Source: a phage
Strand: one strand, 5' to 3'
Sequence record: PX436236.1
Length of the DNA: 64,000 nt
Both the position numbers and the translations under genes were made by a program. Below are positions 1,837-38,977 of this stretch, one piece after another. The notes below the pieces were generated by a model that saw nothing but the letters and a program-made list of their open reading frames with translations, had not been told where the DNA came from and made no database searches. Numbering within the stretch: the first letter of the stretch is position 1; each line of letters opens with the position of its first letter.

Positions 1837-3515
1837 TCCATCACCGTGAATCGTCCAACTTTCTTCATTTGAAGATGTTGGCCATATGCTTGTGGGTCAT
1901 GGTCTCGGTGAGAGATAATGAACACGTTCGTATCTTCAAGGCTATTCAAGATGGTTGCAATGCTCTTAACACCCTCGGCGTCAGTAGCACTGTCAAAAAC
2001 TTCATCAAGAATTAATGTGCTGATATTAACACCGGATACCTTTGAAGCAATATCACGCCAGGTAAAAAGTAGTGCGATATCAATACGTGCTTTCTCACCC
2101 TGTGAAAATGAAGCATAACTAAAGTCTTCACGTCCACGTGATTTAATCGTCTCATTGAATTCTTCGTCTAGGGTAAAGACGTAGTCGGCTTCCATAATCT
2201 TCAAATAAGAATTTATCTGCTTATTAAAGATAGGAATGTATTTCTTAATAATGGAACCTTTAATACCGGTATCCTTCAACATTTCTGTCAGAATTCCACG
2301 ATGATATTTTTCCATTACTAAGGACGATTTGGTAGAGACGATTTTATCAAGCTCTGCTTGAAGCGCGGCAATCTCTTCGGCATTACTTACGAACTCAGCA
2401 GCTGCTTGGTCGATTAATACTTTAACTTTTTTAGCTTTCTCTACGGCAGTAATGGCTTGTTGCTTATGAGTAGCTATCTGAGATTTAATAGCCAGCGCTT
2501 TATTACGTTGTTCGGTTACTTGGTCCTTAATGAGCTTGAGTTCTTGGTACTGCTCATTAATCTTATCCAAAGATTTTTGAAGCTCAAAGTTCTTATCCTT
2601 AATTTTAGTAAGGATGTTTCCATGCTCTTCCAATCCTTGCATACACGTAGGACAGCTGCCGCCTGTTTCGTATAATTTCACGACCTTAGTAAAGGTTGCC
2701 ATATCATTCTTGATTGCAAATCCTTTATTGCTCAGGTCACTCATAGAGTTGCTAGGGTCATCATCGACGATGACATTGAGTAATTCATCAGTTAGTTTTT
2801 CTATATTGCCCTTCGCAGTCCTGGCTTCTTTAACTAGCTCGTCATACATTACTTGTAGACGTGCTGCGTTCTCGCCGGATAATTTACGCTGACGTTCTTC
2901 GTTGTCATTATAAATTTTAATCTGTTGGGTAATAGAATCCTGCTTAACGTCGATTACTTGGATTTGGCTATTAGTCTCGCGAATCAAAGATTTGTTCAAC
3001 TTATCCATATCCGCTAATACAGAAACCTCTAAGAGGTCTTCCACAAGCTTTCGGCGCGCAGGGGTCGACAAACCCATGAAAGGGGTATACCCTGCCGTGC
3101 CAAGAACGACAATCTGTTTGAAGCTTGCATAGGACATTCCGATAAGCTGTTCAAATTCTGCTTGGAAGTCTTTACTGCTGGCAGATTCATCAAGACGTTC
3201 ACCGCCACAAGAGATTTCAAAAATATTGGGTTTTTGCCCGCGCTTGATATAGTATTCTTTGCCATCATATTCCATCCACAGTTCGACCAAAAGGTCTTTC
3301 TTATTACTTGAGTTAATCAACTGCCCTTTCTTAACATCACGAAAAGGCTTACCGAACAGAGCAAATGTAACGGCTTCAAGGAACGTAGATTTCCCAGCAC
3401 CATTTTTACCGGTGACTAAGGTCTTTTGGACCTTGTCAAGTTGGATTGTAATAGGTTGCTGGCCTACCGACATAATATTTTTATACGTTACTTTCTTTAA
3501 CTTAAACGTTTTCAT
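1833..3515 (-). CDS. 46: Recombination nuclease subunit gp46 (Rad50/SbcC-like ATPase)
   Basis: 560-aa ORF, N-terminal Walker A GKNGAGKST, long coiled-coil middle, CxxC hook (CPTC), C-terminal signature region; same length as T4 gp46. Confidence 0.9.
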   Translation of the reverse strand: MKTFKLKKVTYKNIMSVGQQPITIQLDKVQKTLVTGKNGAGKSTFLEAVTFALFGKPFRDVKKGQLINSSNKKDLLVELWMEYDGKEYYIKRGQKPNIFEISCGGERLDESASSKDFQAEFEQLIGMSYASFKQIVVLGTAGYTPFMGLSTPARRKLVEDLLEVSVLADMDKLNKSLIRETNSQIQVIDVKQDSITQQIKIYNDNEERQRKLSGENAARLQVMYDELVKEARTAKGNIEKLTDELLNVIVDDDPSNSMSDLSNKGFAIKNDMATFTKVVKLYETGGSCPTCMQGLEEHGNILTKIKDKNFELQKSLDKINEQYQELKLIKDQVTEQRNKALAIKSQIATHKQQAITAVEKAKKVKVLIDQAAAEFVSNAEEIAALQAELDKIVSTKSSLVMEKYHRGILTEMLKDTGIKGSIIKKYIPIFNKQINSYLKIMEADYVFTLDEEFNETIKSRGREDFSYASFSQGEKARIDIALLFTWRDIASKVSGVNISTLILDEVFDSATDAEGVKSIATILNSLEDTNVFIISHRDHDPQAYGQHLQMKKVGRFTVME

Positions 3516-28817: not shown

Positions 28818-29216
28818 TTATTTATAGGTCTTCATCCAATTCTTGAACAAAGCCGCGACGTCTTTCTCTTTAACGTTCAGTTTAATGTCCAACATTTTAC
28901 CACCCGCTGCTCTGGTTTGGCGAATCTTAGCAGTACCGGTTTCGCCATTCCACTCAACATAATACTGTCCAGTGTTCATTGCAATACCATCACCGTAGTC
29001 TTCATTTTTAGAAGTGGTGAATGCTAGCTTCATAGTCTTAGATACATGAGCCTGCATGCCTGTCTGAAGGGCATTACGAACGCGAATAACCTGAGGAGTG
29101 GCCTGGGTCAAGTTCTCATTCAGTTCTTCAGTGAACTCTTCAGATTCAAACATCGCCAAAAGTTCTTTAGATGCAGGAATTACATTCTCTGCGATAAATT
29201 CATTATAAGTTTTCAT
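28818..29216 (-). CDS. Internal-protein-type virion cargo protein ([14 protein letters not shown]), no T4 counterpart recognised
   Basis: N-terminal CTS; 132 aa; start overlaps the 3' end of e. Confidence 0.55.
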
Positions 29217-29697
29217 ATGCTTTCCAAGTACCTGTTTTAAATGTTGAAATCACGCGCTTAGCACGATTAGGAGTTTGTTTATACCAACGGGATTGAGCCA
29301 GGTTAACTGCCGCATCGTTCCAACGTTTCTGTTGGAGCATACGTAAAGAGTTAGTGAACCCTGCTACGCCTGCTTCACCCATTTGGAAGACCATGTTAAT
29401 TAAAGCACAACGACGAACTTCGTCCAGTACATCATAAACAGGTTTCAATTTAGGATTACGCAGAATAGCTCTACGAGCATTTTCAACCGATCGGTTAAAG
29501 AGTTGTTCAGCTTCAGCCATAGTAATACGACCATTACAAACTCGACCTATAAGCTTATCAAGTTCAGCACGAGCAACATCTTTAGAAGGGTTCTTAGTAA
29601 TCAATTGGCCGATACCAATAGTCCAATAACCTTCAGTGTCTTTATAAAGATTTAAATCAAGACCTTCGTCTTGACGTAACATATCAAAAATATCCAT
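29203..29697 (-). CDS. e: Endolysin (T4 lysozyme e)
   Basis: 164-aa [30 protein letters not shown]...; catalytic Glu11/Asp20 context conserved. Confidence 0.92.
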
Positions 29698-30406: not shown

Positions 30407-30996
30407 TTACGGCATTCCTCAATAAACTCATTTAAATTCTGTTTGATTTTACCTTCGTCGTAAAGACGTTGTTGACGACGTAAACGCCATGGCATTTCAA
30501 TAGCCAAGCACCAAATACTTAAAGCAGCGCCAGCGGCGGCAAGGTTCATTAATCCAGCGCCAATAATAGTTCGTTCTAGCGCATCATTCCAGTTGGCATC
30601 GATTAAAAATGAACTCAGCACTAACATTGGAAGTAAAGTAATAAAATACGCTACAACATATCGTCCGAACGTAAGCCATTCAGTATCAATGAGCCTGGCC
30701 TTTCCATCTTGGAGACAAATATACTTATCGTCAGTGCGAGTGATTTTCTTTACTGGTTGCCAGCCGTTTACAATATAGCCCATTTTATATTCCTCAATTA
30801 AAAGCTGTTTCATTTCGGCAGTACAACCTGACCAATCTATTGTACTGGCTGAAATTCCTTCATCACCGTCATCGATATTTCGCCAGGACTTTTTAATAAT
30901 CATATGTTCACCACTTGGGATAATAATTCCGGCATTTTCCGACCTACGGATGAAGTTTGTATCAATACCCATACATCCAGGTTCATAAAGGGCCAT
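30403..30996 (-). CDS. Membrane protein with C-terminal NLNEFIEECRK tail
   Basis: 197-aa ORF; two or three hydrophobic helices; C-terminal motif shared with two other ORFs. Confidence 0.45.
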   Translation of the reverse strand: MALYEPGCMGIDTNFIRRSENAGIIIPSGEHMIIKKSWRNIDDGDEGISASTIDWSGCTAEMKQLLIEEYKMGYIVNGWQPVKKITRTDDKYICLQDGKARLIDTEWLTFGRYVVAYFITLLPMLVLSSFLIDANWNDALERTIIGAGLMNLAAAGAALSIWCLAIEMPWRLRRQQRLYDEGKIKQNLNEFIEECRK

Positions 30997-31685
30997 TACC
31001 AGCCCTCCATAGGAAATTCCAGATATACTTGAGCATTAACACGGATTTCATTAGTAATCTTTTTAACACGGTCTGTATTACGAGACACACGACCAAACCA
31101 GCGCCACCCATTACTTACTGCACGAGAACCTGTATGCCACGTCTGCCAATCAAACTGGAGCAACGTGCGGTCAGGAGCATCCCACTTAGTTAATTCATTA
31201 GACTCAATTTTTTCCAGAACTTCTTTATGCCACTGGCGATAGATAAGTTCGCCTTCAGGAATCTGACTGAACTGTGCAGTTCCGGTTGCAAAATGAGTAG
31301 GACACACATCAGCGTTAACAAGACCAAGAATATGTTCAGAATGGTATCGAGGATTGTCATAATCAGGTTGCCCTGCGGTAATAAAGTGTTGACCCACCGG
31401 AATATCCGGGCGTGGTACATCATCATGGTGATAACCTGGGATAGCAGGATACCAACCAGGCATCAGCATGTGAACACGAGAATCAAATACAATATCAGGG
31501 CCACATTGCCAATCTTCAGGCAGGTTTTCAATAAAGCTACGAGTAATAGGACCGCCGTGTTTATGAGCAAAATAAGCATCGCAATTAAAGAACATAGGCT
31601 CATTTTTAATCATATCATTACTGATATCTTGAGCAAAACCACCGACTGCACGAGCTTGAGAATTAAAAGTTTTCGGACCGTTCAT
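30996..31685 (-). CDS. Hypothetical protein (229 aa; His/Asp-rich, possible metalloenzyme)
   Basis: Long ORF; PGWYPAIPGYHHDD segment; no confident family call. Confidence 0.45.
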   Translation of the reverse strand: MNGPKTFNSQARAVGGFAQDISNDMIKNEPMFFNCDAYFAHKHGGPITRSFIENLPEDWQCGPDIVFDSRVHMLMPGWYPAIPGYHHDDVPRPDIPVGQHFITAGQPDYDNPRYHSEHILGLVNADVCPTHFATGTAQFSQIPEGELIYRQWHKEVLEKIESNELTKWDAPDRTLLQFDWQTWHTGSRAVSNGWRWFGRVSRNTDRVKKITNEIRVNAQVYLEFPMEGW

Positions 31686-31699
31686 AATATTTTCCTCAC

Positions 31700-31912
31700 T
31701 TACTTTTTGTTGAAAAAGTACATTTTACCTTTAGGGGATAAGGATACACGAAGTGCGTTACCAATACCAACTGAACATTTAACCAGGTCAGCAGATTTCA
31801 ATTCACCAAATGCTTGACGAAGGTCACCATCACGAGTGTTAACCATCAGGCATTTAGCACCAGCTGCACGAACTTCGTTTAACATGTTGATTGCTTGGTT
31901 AGAAAGTTTCAT
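31700..31912 (-). CDS. Hypothetical small protein
   Basis: Start MKLSNQAINML at 31912 with GGAGAA SD; PeSL promoter upstream. Confidence 0.4.
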   Translation of the reverse strand: MKLSNQAINMLNEVRAAGAKCLMVNTRDGDLRQAFGELKSADLVKCSVGIGNALRVSLSPKGKMYFFNKK

Positions 31913-31938
31913 TTTATTCTCCATTTCACTCTGTTGTT

Positions 31939-31978
31939 TTGATAGGTCTATAGTATCACACCTATAGACCTTGTACAC
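31939..31978 (-). promoter_or_regulatory. PeSL-type early promoter/stem-loop repeat
   Basis: GTGTACA-N16-TACTAT with conserved core; GGTCTATAG...CTATAGACC inverted repeat. Confidence 0.5.
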
Positions 31979-31990
31979 TGTTTTGTGCAA

Positions 31991-32950
31991 TTATTTTTCG
32001 AAAGGACGAATTAAATGATGGTTATCTTGGAAACGCTTGATGTAGTCGTTTTCACCTAAAGTCTTATACATATTCACTACAGCTTGGTAGTTTTCCCAGG
32101 CGTACTCGCGGAACCAACCTGAAGTGATTGAGGTACACACTTTCTCAAGAGCCATATAAAAACTTAATGATGGTGAAATATTGAAGTCATTAGGAACCTG
32201 TGAACGTTCTAGTGCCAGGACACAAGTTTCTTCATATACACCAGCCAGTTTAATAGCTTCAGGCAAAGCCTCGAACTTCTCACGAGAGGTCATGACTTCA
32301 GAACCTTCCTTCATATAAAAGGTATATGCAGGGCGTCCAGCCAATGCTACTGCTTCATGAATAGAGTCATGGTCCAGCGTATAAATGGTATCATTAAAGA
32401 ACGATGATTTGTTTACGTCCAATTTAGGGTGAGAATAGCTCAACGTTTCTTTTTGACGTTGCAGCATAATTTCCTGGAGTTCTTCGTTAAGGGTGATACC
32501 TTTATTACGAAGGTATTTGATGTGTGACATAGTTTTCAAGAAGAACGGATTATTCTTAAGGAAACGATGAGAGGTTTTGATAGCCAGACAGATATCAGGG
32601 GTGGCCCAATAGAAACCAGTAAGACGGTCCTTTTTAATATGATTTTCAGCATATTTCAGGAGACGATAGCTTGAAGTGAAATCTTCGTCTTGAAGCTCAC
32701 CGGTAATTTCTCGTACGTTAGTCAGAGCACGAACGATATAAGCTTCAAAATAGGTTTCTTTACCATTATGCATACATTTGAAAGCCTGGACATCAGGATT
32801 GTCAACGTGTACATGGGCGCCGAACATACGTGCTTTAAAGTGATTCCATGAGCCTTGGTCGGCAATGAAATCCCAATCAGAATTTTCGATATGCTTACTT
32901 TCAATCAGACCAGCGTGGTGCAGTGCACGAGAACCAATAACTAACATCAT
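31991..32950 (-). CDS. Hypothetical protein (319 aa), possible nucleotidyltransferase fold
   Basis: Start MMLVIGSRALHH at 32950 (GAGGAAAAT RBS); GS...SDWD arrangement loosely fits an NTase motif. Confidence 0.4.
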   Translation of the reverse strand: MMLVIGSRALHHAGLIESKHIENSDWDFIADQGSWNHFKARMFGAHVHVDNPDVQAFKCMHNGKETYFEAYIVRALTNVREITGELQDEDFTSSYRLLKYAENHIKKDRLTGFYWATPDICLAIKTSHRFLKNNPFFLKTMSHIKYLRNKGITLNEELQEIMLQRQKETLSYSHPKLDVNKSSFFNDTIYTLDHDSIHEAVALAGRPAYTFYMKEGSEVMTSREKFEALPEAIKLAGVYEETCVLALERSQVPNDFNISPSLSFYMALEKVCTSITSGWFREYAWENYQAVVNMYKTLGENDYIKRFQDNHHLIRPFEK

Positions 32951-32969
32951 AATATTTTCCTCAGTAAAC

Positions 32970-33209
32970 TTAAATTTCAGCGACGTAATCGTTATGCAAT
33001 TCCCACATATCATCAGAATTATTCTTAATGATAGGAATTATCTCATTAGAGATTTCTTCAGCATAAGGGTCATTGATACAGTGGGCATCTTCAAAACGAA
33101 CACCGTAATCAGACTTCTTATAAGAGAAGCCATAAATCTTTTTAAACTTGGCGCGAGTAATGCGTACCGGTTCATTAGACTTATCGGACATCGGAGCGTA
33201 ATACCACAT
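32970..33209 (-). CDS. Hypothetical small protein
   Basis: 79-aa ORF with GAGGAG RBS; promoter ATGTACA-N17-TACTAT upstream. Confidence 0.4.
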   Translation of the reverse strand: MWYYAPMSDKSNEPVRITRAKFKKIYGFSYKKSDYGVRFEDAHCINDPYAEEISNEIIPIIKNNSDDMWELHNDYVAEI

Positions 33210-33252
33210 ATGTTCTCCTCATGTTTGTGTAGGGTAATAGTAACATGATTTT

Positions 33253-33603
33253 CTAGAGTTGTACATCACTTCTGCAATATTCTAAAAATAATTTATCATT
33301 GTCTACTGTATCCCAACGACGCCAAGACGGGTTCCAGACCAAAGCGTTGTCACCACAATCATTGAGCTTAAAATGGTCGTAGTACATAGCTATGTGTCTA
33401 GTCTCGTCACCAGAGAACCCCAGTATAGGCTCACCGCGGGTGTGATACATATGATGGTGCATTGAGAGGTCGCATTTGTAAAACATCTCACGTTTACCAC
33501 GAACGAACAAGAAGGCCTGTCCATTCATATAGAATTCTTTATTTGTTTTCAAAAGATATTTGAATACTGAATCTTTATGCATAAGTCCTCCTACCACATC
33601 CAT
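33253..33603 (-). CDS. Hypothetical protein
   Basis: 116-aa ORF. Confidence 0.35.
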   Translation of the reverse strand: MDVVGGLMHKDSVFKYLLKTNKEFYMNGQAFLFVRGKREMFYKCDLSMHHHMYHTRGEPILGFSGDETRHIAMYYDHFKLNDCGDNALVWNPSWRRWDTVDNDKLFLEYCRSDVQL

Positions 33604-33612
33604 GTGGTTAAA

Positions 33613-33840
33613 TTATTTTCCTAACGAAATACGAGTAGGTTTTTTACCGAAATAGTCTTCATAAGAACCATCTAAACGACCTGCTTTAGACCGACAATAT
33701 GAATCGTACTTTTTGTAATAAGTCATCTCAGTATTATAACGCGGGTGTCTATCAGCCATAATAATACTTAACGGCCAACCTTTGGCATAATCGCGAAGAC
33801 CATTTATTTTACGAATGTATCTTTTCTTTAATTTTAGCAT
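33613..33840 (-). CDS. Hypothetical basic small protein
   Basis: 75-aa ORF; its ATG overlaps the stop of paralog 1 (ATGCTAA). Confidence 0.4.
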   Translation of the reverse strand: MLKLKKRYIRKINGLRDYAKGWPLSIIMADRHPRYNTEMTYYKKYDSYCRSKAGRLDGSYEDYFGKKPTRISLGK

Positions 33841-34058
33841 GAGCTCGGATACCAGATTTTACCATCGGCCTGAGCAACGAAGGTGCGACCAGCTTCTTCG
33901 CCATAACACGAGCTATTCAGCCAATCTTCGAGACGAACTTCACCGTCATAATCGTCGAGCTCAACACCAAAACTTTGAGCAGAAGCCATATCTTTTACTT
34001 TCTTATACAGTGCAGCCAGTTCAAGTGCAGCTTTTTCTAATTCATTAATATCAGACAT
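33834..34058 (-). CDS. Paralog 1 of the W-x-SS-x-C-terminal small acidic protein family
   Basis: 74 aa, ends ...GKIWYPSSC; GTTTACA at 34088-34094 upstream. Confidence 0.5.
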   Translation of the reverse strand: MSDINELEKAALELAALYKKVKDMASAQSFGVELDDYDGEVRLEDWLNSSCYGEEAGRTFVAQADGKIWYPSSC

Positions 34059-34069
34059 TTTTTATCACC

Positions 34070-34282
34070 TTAGCAAGACATAGAGGATGTAAACCAGAAA
34101 CCTTCACCTTCCGGAATACCGTAGTCATCACGGACCCATTCGTAATCATCATATTCCGGGTTCTTTGGAGAAATGTATTCTCCACGACCAGAAACACGGA
34201 ACTCTTCACCCGTTTCGTCAGCCACAGACTGGCCTTTACGTACTAATTCACGGATTTGGTTTTCAATTTCATCAATAGTCAT
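34070..34282 (-). CDS. Paralog 2 of the W-x-SS-x-C-terminal small acidic protein family
   Basis: 70 aa, ends ...GFWFTSSMSC. Confidence 0.5.
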   Translation of the reverse strand: MTIDEIENQIRELVRKGQSVADETGEEFRVSGRGEYISPKNPEYDDYEWVRDDYGIPEGEGFWFTSSMSC

Positions 34283-34291
34283 TTTATTTCC

Positions 34292-34573
34292 TTAACATTC
34301 AGAAGAAGAGGACACCCAACCACCATTTTCTAGGCTGGTAGTGTAATCATGTTGGTTTACAATAGCGTACTGAGCTTCACCGTATTCTTCCCAGTGGGCA
34401 AGGTCGGCTTTCAAGGCGCCAGGAGAATAATAGTCACCGCCCATACCGCGAGCAGGGTATATATTAAAATGAGTCTCATATTTGTTTGCAATTTCCTCGG
34501 CACGACGAATAGCTTTATGGATATCATTTACTGCTTCAGCCAATTCTTTATTTTTATGGTAATCATTCATCAT
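34292..34573 (-). CDS. Paralog 3 of the W-x-SS-x-C-terminal small acidic protein family
   Basis: 93 aa, ends ...GGWVSSSSEC. Confidence 0.5.
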   Translation of the reverse strand: MMNDYHKNKELAEAVNDIHKAIRRAEEIANKYETHFNIYPARGMGGDYYSPGALKADLAHWEEYGEAQYAIVNQHDYTTSLENGGWVSSSSEC

Positions 34574-34582
34574 AAAATTTCC

Positions 34583-34873
34583 TTAGCACATTGCCGAAGA
34601 GGAGATCCAAGCACCAACTGTAACGACGCCATTTTCAACTTCACCACCGTTGTTTTCAATTTCATCTTTAAACCACTGGGAGCATTCATAACCGACAGGA
34701 TAATATGTACGGCCTGAACCATAATCACCAGTACCGAATTGGATACCATACTTATCGGCAATAGCTTCACATTCATGTTCGATGGTATTCACTTTATTCA
34801 GAAGAGCATAGATAGCCTTTTCTGCAGATTTCTCATCATTGTGTTCCGGGATTTCAATTTCAATTTTATTCAT
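34583..34873 (-). CDS. Paralog 4 of the W-x-SS-x-C-terminal small acidic protein family
   Basis: 96 aa, ends ...GAWISSSAMC. Confidence 0.5.
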   Translation of the reverse strand: MNKIEIEIPEHNDEKSAEKAIYALLNKVNTIEHECEAIADKYGIQFGTGDYGSGRTYYPVGYECSQWFKDEIENNGGEVENGVVTVGAWISSSAMC

Positions 34874-35223
34874 GATTTACATTCCTTAATAAAGGTTTCA
34901 AGGTCATTACGTTTAGTTTGTTTTACATACTCATTATAATTAGCCATAGCTAAAGCATATCTCTTTTTACGTGGCTTGTTTATTTTATTAGTTTGGGCAA
35001 TATCAAAGACCCATGGGATAAAAAATCCTATTAAAGCCGGAACCCAAATCCATGCAAGGCTCATATCTTCAAACGGATGGCGAGGCATACCATTAATAAT
35101 CCCACCGACAAGAAATCCAATTATCCCTGCAGTCATACTAGTAGCAATGCCGAGGAATAAGGAAATAGCTATATCATAATCTGCTAATGCGTAACCAGGG
35201 TCGGTTTTACTAGGCTTATGCAT
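34870..35223 (-). CDS. Membrane protein with C-terminal DLETFIKECKS tail
   Basis: Start MHKPSKTD at 35223 (AGAGG RBS); hydrophobic helices; shared C-terminal motif. Confidence 0.4.
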   Translation of the reverse strand: MHKPSKTDPGYALADYDIAISLFLGIATSMTAGIIGFLVGGIINGMPRHPFEDMSLAWIWVPALIGFFIPWVFDIAQTNKINKPRKKRYALAMANYNEYVKQTKRNDLETFIKECKS

Positions 35224-35752
35224 TTTGAACCTCTTTAGCGTATTCGCGACATTCAGCAATAAAACGATTAAGCTTACGTTGTTGTTTACGACTTTCTAAT
35301 GTGTACTCATTAGCCAAAATAATAAGCTCATCTTTATCGTAATTTTTAATATCAGAGTAAGATGGGCGACGGTCAACCATTCCAAATACATCACCATTTT
35401 CTAAAGCTACATAACATACTAAATGGTAATCATCGTCTGCCATATTAAGAAGCACACAATCAGCGCTCTCGTTTAAAGAATATACCGAATAACGTAGTCC
35501 AGCGAATTCCACTCGTTGAATAGCCAGATTTACGTCAATAATTTCCAAAGCATCTTCAAAAGAAAGGTCTTCAGCTAAAGCAAAAATAAAAGGTAATTTG
35601 GTAGTATCGCCACGGCTAGATGTTCTGCTTAAGAAATCGTTTGAATAGCCTAGGTCTTGGCGAATTCTATAAAGAACTGAATTAGTTTCATGTGAAAGAC
35701 CACTATGCTTAAACCAATCAATATTTGATATCAGGTCGTCATATAAACTCAT
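35216..35752 (-). CDS. Hypothetical protein with C-terminal KLNRFIAECRE motif
   Basis: 178-aa ORF; stop overlaps the next gene's start. Confidence 0.4.
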   Translation of the reverse strand: MSLYDDLISNIDWFKHSGLSHETNSVLYRIRQDLGYSNDFLSRTSSRGDTTKLPFIFALAEDLSFEDALEIIDVNLAIQRVEFAGLRYSVYSLNESADCVLLNMADDDYHLVCYVALENGDVFGMVDRRPSYSDIKNYDKDELIILANEYTLESRKQQRKLNRFIAECREYAKEVQNA

Positions 35753-36394: not shown

Positions 36395-36470
36395 AGTATT
36401 TCCTTCAGTTGGTTAACGTTTTGTAATCCATGAGGACATTATACCCTGTCCTCTGAGGTTTGTAAACATT

Positions 36471-38820: not shown

Positions 38821-38895
38821 TGGTATCCCGCCCTGGGATCGAACCAGGACCGCAAACTTAGAAGGATCGTATGCTATCCATTACACCAGCGGGAC
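38821..38895 (-). tRNA. tRNA, probable Arg (anticodon UCU)
   Basis: Cloverleaf on minus strand: acceptor GTCCCGC/GCGGGAT, T-arm CCTGG-TTCGATC-CCAGG, anticodon loop CTTCTAA, encoded CCA. Confidence 0.7.
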
Positions 38896-38900
38896 GTAGT

Positions 38901-38977
38901 TGGTGACCCAGACCAGATTTGAACTGGTAACCTTTCCCTTATGAGGGGACTGCTGCTAACCATTGAGCTACAGGGCC
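38901..38977 (-). tRNA. tRNA with anticodon CAU (Met or Ile2)
   Basis: Acceptor GGCCCTG, D-arm TAGCTCAATGGTTAGC, anticodon loop CTCATAA, T-loop TTCAAAT, encoded CCA. Confidence 0.7.

Follow-up and report, generated by a model that had tools for sequence, protein, structure and literature searches.

What purpose may be served by four small, diverged genes that lie side by side in a phage genome, and whose products all close on the same serine-rich tail with cysteine as the very last residue, is the question raised by a locus in sequence record PX436236.1, of which a stretch of 64,000 nucleotides (the window) was analysed. The four open reading frames (ORFs) follow one another on the minus strand and are here called paralogues 1 to 4. 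Paralogue 1 (34583-34873; 96 aa) ends in GAWISSSAMC, paralogue 2 (34292-34573; 93 aa), which carries the ARGMGGDYYSPG motif, in GGWVSSSSEC, paralogue 3 (34070-34282; 70 aa) in GFWFTSSMSC, and paralogue 4 (33834-34058; 74 aa) in GKIWYPSSC, the general form of the tails being W-x-[S/T/P]-S-S-(x-x)-Cys. As is argued below, they belong to a large phage family, PHROG 899, which is very probably linked in function with a nucleotidyltransferase encoded just downstream, and it is tentatively proposed that their tails serve as acceptors for this enzyme.

A preliminary description of the window, made from the letters alone, had called the four ORFs small, acidic, translationally coupled paralogues, and its coordinates, lengths and C-termini match the present ones exactly. 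The proteins are indeed acidic, with isoelectric points (pI) of 4.2-5.0 and 15-17 Asp plus Glu residues versus 7-8 Lys plus Arg, and coupling is supported by intergenic gaps of 9, 9 and 11 nt, each of the form TAA-GG(A/T)..ATG. At the two ends of the array, the start of paralogue 1 overlaps the stop of an upstream e.3-like ORF (ATGA), and the end of paralogue 4 overlaps the start of the next ORF. A chance origin of the shared tail can be excluded, since of the 268 ORFs with 50 aa or more that a six-frame translation of the window contains, nine end in Cys and only the four of the array, which are adjacent, end in W..SS..C. Moreover, with Dhakavirus orthologues as the reference, the ratio of non-synonymous to synonymous change (pN/pS) was 0.13, 0.26, 0.16 and 0.15 for paralogues 1 to 4, respectively, and the four ORFs are therefore real genes under purifying selection. 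Their common descent becomes visible at the profile level: pairwise BLASTP among the four gave no matches, and all of them matched the phrog_899 profile, aligned to its C-terminal end (E 2.8e-23, 2.4e-20, 6.2e-14 and 1.4e-9 for paralogues 1 to 4). By this profile evidence, the ORFs are diverged paralogues of one large family, PHROG 899. The window belongs to a Dhakavirus, a T4-type phage of E. coli from the JS98/Bp7/WG01 group; the array region is 99.6% identical to that of phage vB_EcoM-E33, and all genes of the region are annotated as 'hypothetical'.

The tail was found to be the hallmark of the whole family. A word-indexed search returned close relatives only, all of them with the tail, while HMMER, run exhaustively over 1.84 billion representative proteins, gave 375 clusters at E < 1e-3; in the new representatives from this search, Cys was the last residue in 138 of 147 and the penultimate one in eight of 147. 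A pool of 397 distinct sequences was then considered, composed of representatives, homologues and ORFs from the loci described below. Cys is the last residue in 380 of them (about 96%) and the penultimate one in 11 more, with W at position -7 in 93%, S, A or P at -5, S at -4 in 95% and S at -3 in 94%; among the Cys-terminated members, S stands at -3 in 94% and C at 0 in 100%. Since the tail is kept in about 96% of the homologues, including those of very distant phages, sequence comparison supports it as a constrained functional element, as the preliminary description had suggested from the four copies. That description had also allowed for a well-characterised family, and none turned up: PHROG 899 is a catalogue entry without assigned function, and no match to the small proteins was obtained in Pfam (HEPN domains included), NCBIfam, PADLOC or the PDB. 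The family is present in at least 393 phage records, and all matches with a named source are phage records except one labelled 'Shigella sonnei', the longest contig of which, at 168 kb, has the size of a phage genome; so far, it is known by sequence only from phages and viral-type sequences, no dedicated scan of bacterial genomes having been run.

The family consensus comprises an N-terminal helix, an F-x-F...Y-G-M-G-G-T-Y-Y-P hairpin, an acidic linker of variable length and the terminal G-W-x-S-S-S-x-x-C. In paralogue 1, an N-terminal helix, a GDYGSGRTYYP hairpin and an acidic linker can be recognized, and its AlphaFold2 (AF2) model, with a predicted local distance difference test (pLDDT) score of 91.9, shows a helix at residues 14-42 followed by a small beta/alpha unit. 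Confidence is high over most of the model and lowest in the tail, the last six residues of which score 77. Fold searches with this model found nothing similar among solved structures, those of DNA mimics among them, and no domains were found in the N-terminal extensions of the longer family members. Some members carry tandem repeats of the W-x-SS(-x-C) unit. Paralogue 4 belongs to a 'double-motif' subtype, with an internal DWLNSSCYGEE in addition to the terminal KIWYPSSC and without the YGMGG hairpin, which was also found in the rV5-like Phapecoctavirus ESCO13 (...EDWQSSSCYGEGDEGFVVNSQGVWHSSSC); with the 149-sequence hidden Markov model (HMM) of the family, paralogue 4 scores below E 1e-3. Two family-type domains are joined in a metagenomic protein of 134 aa (P0188; ...GWAASSQSC, then ...CVWDHSGCAF), which looks like a fusion of two tandem copies, its first Cys thus being internal.

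The preliminary description had treated the array as self-contained. The ORFs and their adjacency stand, but the unit is larger, a conserved enzyme gene at 31991-32950 having been missed. This gene, on the minus strand, lies 0.9 kb downstream of the array, past three small lineage-specific ORFs, and encodes a protein of 319 aa with the Pfam domains DUF7277 and DUF7275 (E 2e-27 and 2e-77, respectively), assigned to PHROG 2141. Its open frame extends 21 codons further upstream (to 33013), where it overlaps the end of a 79-aa ORF; the homologues all start at the methionine of MMLVIGS, and gene callers taking the longest ORF (31991-33013) will mis-start the enzyme. The enzyme family includes 2033 proteins at E < 1e-5, is present in at least 734 phage records and keeps 40-60% identity across very different phages. 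Residues G6-S7, D25-x-D27, E69 and K125/H128/R129 are invariant, as are the segments Y-D-H-D-x-I-H, CVLALERSQIP and KVCTSITSGWFREYAWENY and, in the C-terminal domain, Cys243, Cys272 and several His. In predicted fold (AF2 model, pLDDT 92), the enzyme comes nearest to the MenT/AbiEii tRNA-nucleotidyltransferase toxins and antibiotic nucleotidyltransferases. Judged by this model, the enzyme is a Pol-beta-type nucleotidyltransferase, nearest the DUF1814/AbiEii group, with its catalytic residues intact and, since the GS...DxD signature (17 residues in the spacing, GSx17DxD) and the further residues are invariant, it is probably catalytically active.

Other identities were considered for this enzyme. 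Pfam scanning at E up to 10 gave only DUF7275 and DUF7277, with no match to RlaP (PF10127) or to Gad2 (PF26128); DUF1814 of Pfam was not matched either, and the PADLOC and NCBIfam scans were empty. As regards the label 'DefenseFinder protein' on the homologue from an Acinetobacter phage, only a weak AbiEii HMM match could be reproduced, and for a different homologue. Some GenBank records (e.g. vB_EcoM_005 and vB_KpnM-VAC36) label the small ORFs or the enzyme as 'tail completion protein', 'prohead assembly scaffold protein' or 'major capsid protein'. These labels look like annotation errors, and so does the JGI label 'seryl-tRNA synthetase' on the small-family member P0211, which was treated as spurious. 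Searches of the literature on either family (DUF7275/DUF7277, the PHROG identifiers, RB69 ORF names, and C-terminal cysteine with nucleotidyltransferase) found nothing relevant. PHROG 2141, DUF7277 and DUF7275 are catalogue entries without function, and no mention of the tail motif, or of the two families as a pair, is made there or in the literature searched.

The association between the small family and the enzyme was assessed from both sides. With the enzyme as query, 80 IMG/VR loci were obtained, which fall into 34 clades at 70% enzyme identity. In 70 of the 80, at least one family ORF was detected by HMM, always on the same strand as the enzyme, and a search for the tail motif rescues four more (about 74 of 80 in total). 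The family ORFs lie upstream of the enzyme in all such loci, bar one extra downstream copy, with one to five upstream copies per locus and a median gap of 605 bp between the last copy and the enzyme. The exception is the largest array seen, in an uncultivated phage (L083, 8506-11367, on a contig of 168 kb), where six copies are found, five upstream and one downstream of the enzyme. Moreover, the family accompanies the enzyme in 28 of the 34 clades, the next most widespread neighbouring family in only six, and no third conserved component of the module was found, no neighbour family exceeding 6/34 clades. When the small family was used as the starting point, a DUF7277+DUF7275 gene was located 0-700 bp downstream in six of six look-ups: the first two concerned phages unrelated to each other, a 395-kb jumbo phage and one of 122 kb, in which the family gene is immediately followed by a DUF7277+DUF7275 gene of 313-349 aa, and the four further ones, Myxococcus phage Mx1 among them, all had the enzyme downstream. 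The pairing also occurs in Pseudomonas phiPsa374 (Otagovirus), E. coli ESCO13, the Ralstonia jumbo phage RsoM2USA and an Acinetobacter phage, and in most phages other than that of the window the family abuts the enzyme. In addition, the record counts by host genus (393 for the family, 734 for the enzyme) fit a distribution in which the family occurs only where the enzyme is. Taken as a whole, a functional link between the two is very likely, and they probably constitute a two-part phage module, in which the small family is the upstream component of variable copy number.

Finding this partner changes the most likely role of the tail, for which a metal ligand, an acylation or adduct site or a recognition tag had previously been considered. 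Because the tail offers conserved nucleophiles and the partner is of a type that transfers nucleotidyl or phosphoryl groups to hydroxyls, docking of the one in the other is proposed. The small proteins would thus bind the enzyme as its protein substrates, the flexible Ser-Ser-Ser-x-x-Cys tail entering the active site, where a hydroxyl (or the thiol) of the tail would accept a nucleotidyl or phosphoryl group. In that case, the divergence among the paralogues would provide a set of alternative effectors, each in modified form and produced early during infection for host takeover or counter-defence. This specific acceptor mechanism is put forward tentatively, as a plausible reading rather than a probable one. 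It is favoured because several diverged small genes accompany a single enzyme, because the motif is modular and duplicated in some members, because the enzyme may occur on its own but the family never does, and because enzymes of the Pol-beta type do modify partner proteins, as in the polyadenylylation of HepT by MntA (PMC7641770). Furthermore, MenT enzymes phosphorylate a Ser/Thr of the active site (PMC11375011). One enzyme with 1-6 diversified upstream genes fits the logic of substrates better than that of antitoxins.

The HepT/MntA pair, a type VII toxin-antitoxin system of the HEPN/MNT class, resembles the module in its possible chemistry, since there a minimal Pol-beta enzyme with GS...DxD nucleotidylates a co-encoded partner (PMC7641770). 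Nevertheless, that partner is a HEPN RNase, whereas the small proteins described here show neither a HEPN domain nor a fold match. The acceptor in HepT is Tyr, while the candidate acceptor here is the Ser/Cys tail, and the motif of MntA is GSX10DXD as compared with GSx17DxD in the present enzyme, which is much larger.

Several observations weigh against the acceptor mechanism and, in part, against the module itself. Only about 145 of the 319 residues of the enzyme align to known nucleotidyltransferase structures, and its strongly conserved C-terminal half falls outside this alignment and has no assigned function. To our knowledge, Pol-beta nucleotidyltransferases that modify proteins do so on Tyr, and not on Ser or Cys. 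As to the linkage, three unrelated ORFs separate array and enzyme in the window, divergent enzyme homologues of Vibrio, Gordonia and Streptomyces phages lack the pairing, and in about six of the 80 loci the enzyme occurs with no detectable family member, so that some role of the enzyme must be independent of the small proteins. Finally, the MenT toxins, structurally the closest to the enzyme, act on tRNA 3' ends, not on proteins, and a small helical protein whose gene lies upstream keeps MenT1 under control, a situation that speaks for inhibition rather than modification (PMC10435456).

According to this last precedent, the small proteins could be antitoxin-like regulators or inhibitors of the enzyme, their tail acting as a pseudo-substrate or a metal-binding plug that would restrain or retune a tRNA/RNA-directed nucleotidyltransferase during infection. 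In fact, MenA1 is a 68-aa helical protein which blocks the active sites of MenT1 and induces its auto-phosphorylation (PMC10435456, PMC11375011), and the order of the genes, with a small gene upstream of a nucleotidyltransferase, is alike in MenAT1 of M. tuberculosis, in AbiE and in the module. These systems are, however, chromosomal, while the module is phage-borne, and they do not have 1-6 diverged small genes per enzyme, antitoxins not being normally multi-copy. The C-terminus of MenA1 is dispensable, whereas the invariant Ser/Cys tail is the most conserved part of the family, which differs in fold from, and bears no resemblance to, any known MenA or AbiEi, nor has it sequence or fold similarity to any solved structure. 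The enzyme itself retains the full, canonical DxD instead of the S/T-x-D phospho-acceptor arrangement of MenT (PMC11375011), has a large extra conserved C-terminal domain, unlike those of MenAT and AbiE, and gives no DUF1814 profile match, its predicted fold being nearest the DUF1814/AbiEii group. Its occurrence without the family in some phages also speaks against an antitoxin, and inhibition of this kind is considered doubtful, although it deserves attention ahead of the explanations that follow.

Alternatively, the small proteins could act on their own as early effectors, that is, as anti-defence or host-takeover binders or acidic decoys whose tail binds a host target or a metal, the enzyme being merely syntenic. 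Their acidity, the diversification of the paralogues and their variable copy number, the early-type promoter candidate ahead of the genes and the presence of Acb1, an anti-defence neighbour, directly after the enzyme in one locus would all be in agreement with this possibility. Acidity is also the sole support for the nucleic-acid mimicry entertained in the preliminary description: like Ocr, Arn and similar acidic DNA mimics, the proteins are small, acidic and phage-encoded, of the early type, but they lack a fold match to any PDB entry, such mimics and other inhibitors included, and their hallmark is a nucleophilic tail with linkage to an enzyme, not a DNA-like surface charge. Moreover, the linkage is same-strand and directly upstream in at least 28 enzyme clades whose neighbourhoods are otherwise unrelated, the family was never away from the enzyme in the six independent look-ups, and a synteny devoid of function is unlikely to survive such divergence. 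Independent effectors are therefore regarded as unlikely.

It could also be supposed that the enzyme repairs or modifies the 3' ends of RNA or tRNA, the small proteins being acidic, RNA-mimicking adaptors or chaperones whose tail imitates the acceptor end. MenT-type enzymes do extend tRNA 3' ends (PMC10435456), the enzyme lies beside RNA ligase or tRNA genes in some loci, and the module of the window is 4-5 kb from two tRNA genes. Nevertheless, tRNA genes are present in only eight of the 52 loci fetched, which is not clearly above expectation for tRNA-rich large phages, the missing PF10127 match sets the enzyme apart from the RNA-ligase-associated RlaP family, and the model of the small protein is unlike RNA-binding or RNA-mimic folds. 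Such an RNA-directed scheme appears distinctly improbable.

A likeness to clusters for ribosomally synthesized and post-translationally modified peptides (RiPPs) should also be mentioned, since there too (e.g. LanA genes before one lanthipeptide synthetase) one enzyme gene is immediately preceded by a number of diversified small ones. The small proteins have a Ser/Cys-rich, reactive region, with Ser at -3 from the C-terminal Cys (94% of the Cys-terminated members), a placement that would allow a thioether ring; S-x-x-C is the spacing of lanthionine and aminovinyl-cysteine (AviCys) rings. The products are, however, folded proteins of 70-100 aa and not leader-core peptides, the fold of the enzyme is that of a nucleotidyltransferase, and no lanthipeptide synthetase, dehydratase, kinase-lyase, cyclase or flavoprotein domain was detected by domain scans. 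Given the S-x-x-C spacing and the invariant Cys/His of the enzyme's C-terminal domain, one might by analogy imagine that a serine of the tail is first activated by the enzyme, through O-nucleotidylation or phosphorylation, that the C-terminal domain then promotes its elimination to dehydroalanine and that the thiol of the terminal Cys adds to it, yielding a lanthionine-like S-x-x-C ring or else leaving a dehydroalanine warhead, which is the most improbable of all the explanations considered.

Returning to the tail as an acceptor for the enzyme, the setting of the module in the window can now be described. The four paralogues, three small ORFs, the enzyme, a 96-aa ORF and a 229-aa ORF, all on the minus strand, form a block (30996-34873) between an e.3-like and an e.2-like gene. 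In T4, e.3 abuts e.2 and this 3.9-kb block is absent, while in the annotations of Bp7 and Shf125875 e.3 and e.2 flank the block. Neither the family nor the enzyme was found in the e-tRNA region of T4, so that for this region the lack of a T4 counterpart noted earlier holds good, as does the location of the array between lysozyme e (29203-29697) and the tRNA genes (tRNA-Arg and tRNA-Met, 38821-38977). Of the insertion, the family and the enzyme alone are conserved and distributed together. The three small ORFs between them (75, 116 and 79 aa; 32970-33840, minus strand; phrog_7065, phrog_9796 and phrog_3723, without known function) are specific to enterobacterial T4-like lineages and stand outside the conserved module; in fact, the family of the 79-aa ORF, which lacks a terminal Cys, accompanies five of the 34 enzyme clades, exclusively in enterobacterial T4-likes. 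The 229-aa (phrog_1843) and 96-aa (phrog_6001) ORFs, at 30996-31990 on the minus strand, are likewise of no known function and have no Pfam domain. A 2-oxoglutarate (2OG)-Fe(II) oxygenase adjoins the module in another locus (L003), and no such domain was found in the 229-aa ORF of the window.

As regards expression, the minus-strand genes from about 36.4 kb down to 30.4 kb read as one tightly packed unit. The GTTTACA element at 34088-34094, previously taken as a promoter of the array, had to be discarded: it falls on the codons TGG-TTT-ACA (W-F-T) that encode part of the tail of paralogue 3, lacks a -10 box and was not called by the promoter scan. The best early-type candidate lies instead at 36438-36466 on the minus strand (TTTACA-17-TATAAT, 11 of 12 consensus matches), upstream of the run that contains the array and the enzyme; it is a match to the consensus and no more, and the region does not hold more promoter-like sites than expected from shuffled sequence. 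Within the same run, the e.3-like membrane protein (129 aa, 34870-35259) ends in the ATGA overlap with paralogue 1, and its open frame overlaps the 178-aa upstream ORF (35216-35752) by 44 nt, its phrog_2330 match starting only at residue 13.

Some individual loci from other phages also merit comment. In L097 (5363-6765), a locus of an uncultivated 136-kb phage, the gene right after the enzyme has a precomputed Pfam match to Acb1, which acts against the cyclic oligonucleotide-based antiphage signalling system (CBASS), and this case at least suggests that the module may be found in the company of counter-defence genes. In the same phage, ARAGORN reports a permuted tmRNA-like gene (3036-3371; tag ANADTYLMAA) together with three tRNA genes just upstream of the family gene. 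In L006 (13139-14071), a gene 3.7 kb downstream, separate from the enzyme, bears a precomputed Gad2 label which a direct Pfam scan did not reproduce. Two actinophages carry divergent enzyme homologues with no detectable Cys-tailed partner, beside a tRNA cluster in Gordonia phage Aphelion (L088, 3809-4600) and beside an RNA ligase gene in Streptomyces phage TunaTartare (L089, 3878-4636), contexts which hint at an RNA-related ancestral role of the enzyme.

With regard to the biology of these phages, the role of the module is probably in early host takeover or counter-defence, as indicated circumstantially by the early-type promoter candidate, the location among accessory genes, the occasional neighbours such as Acb1 and the variable copy number. 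PHROG 899, PHROG 2141 and DUF7277/DUF7275 had already been catalogued; new here are the tail motif as the hallmark of the small family and the pairing of the two families. The carriers are large virulent phages used as models and in therapy, including the T4-like Dhakavirus, Mosigvirus and Karamvirus, rV5-like phages, Otagovirus and jumbo phages. A near-invariant terminal Cys after a run of serines, present in multiple copies and tied to a toxin-like nucleotidyltransferase, suggests a mechanism of protein modification or regulation not described before. If the small proteins were substrates, a phage nucleotidyltransferase would modify its own effector proteins, which would be new; if they were inhibitors, a phage-borne MenT-like enzyme would be found with a new class of partner; and if thioethers were formed, phages would have a new way, based on a nucleotidyltransferase, of introducing them into ribosomally made proteins, here 1-6 effectors. 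Either of the first two outcomes would assign a function to two families that have none and would give a handle on the biology of early host takeover and counter-defence.

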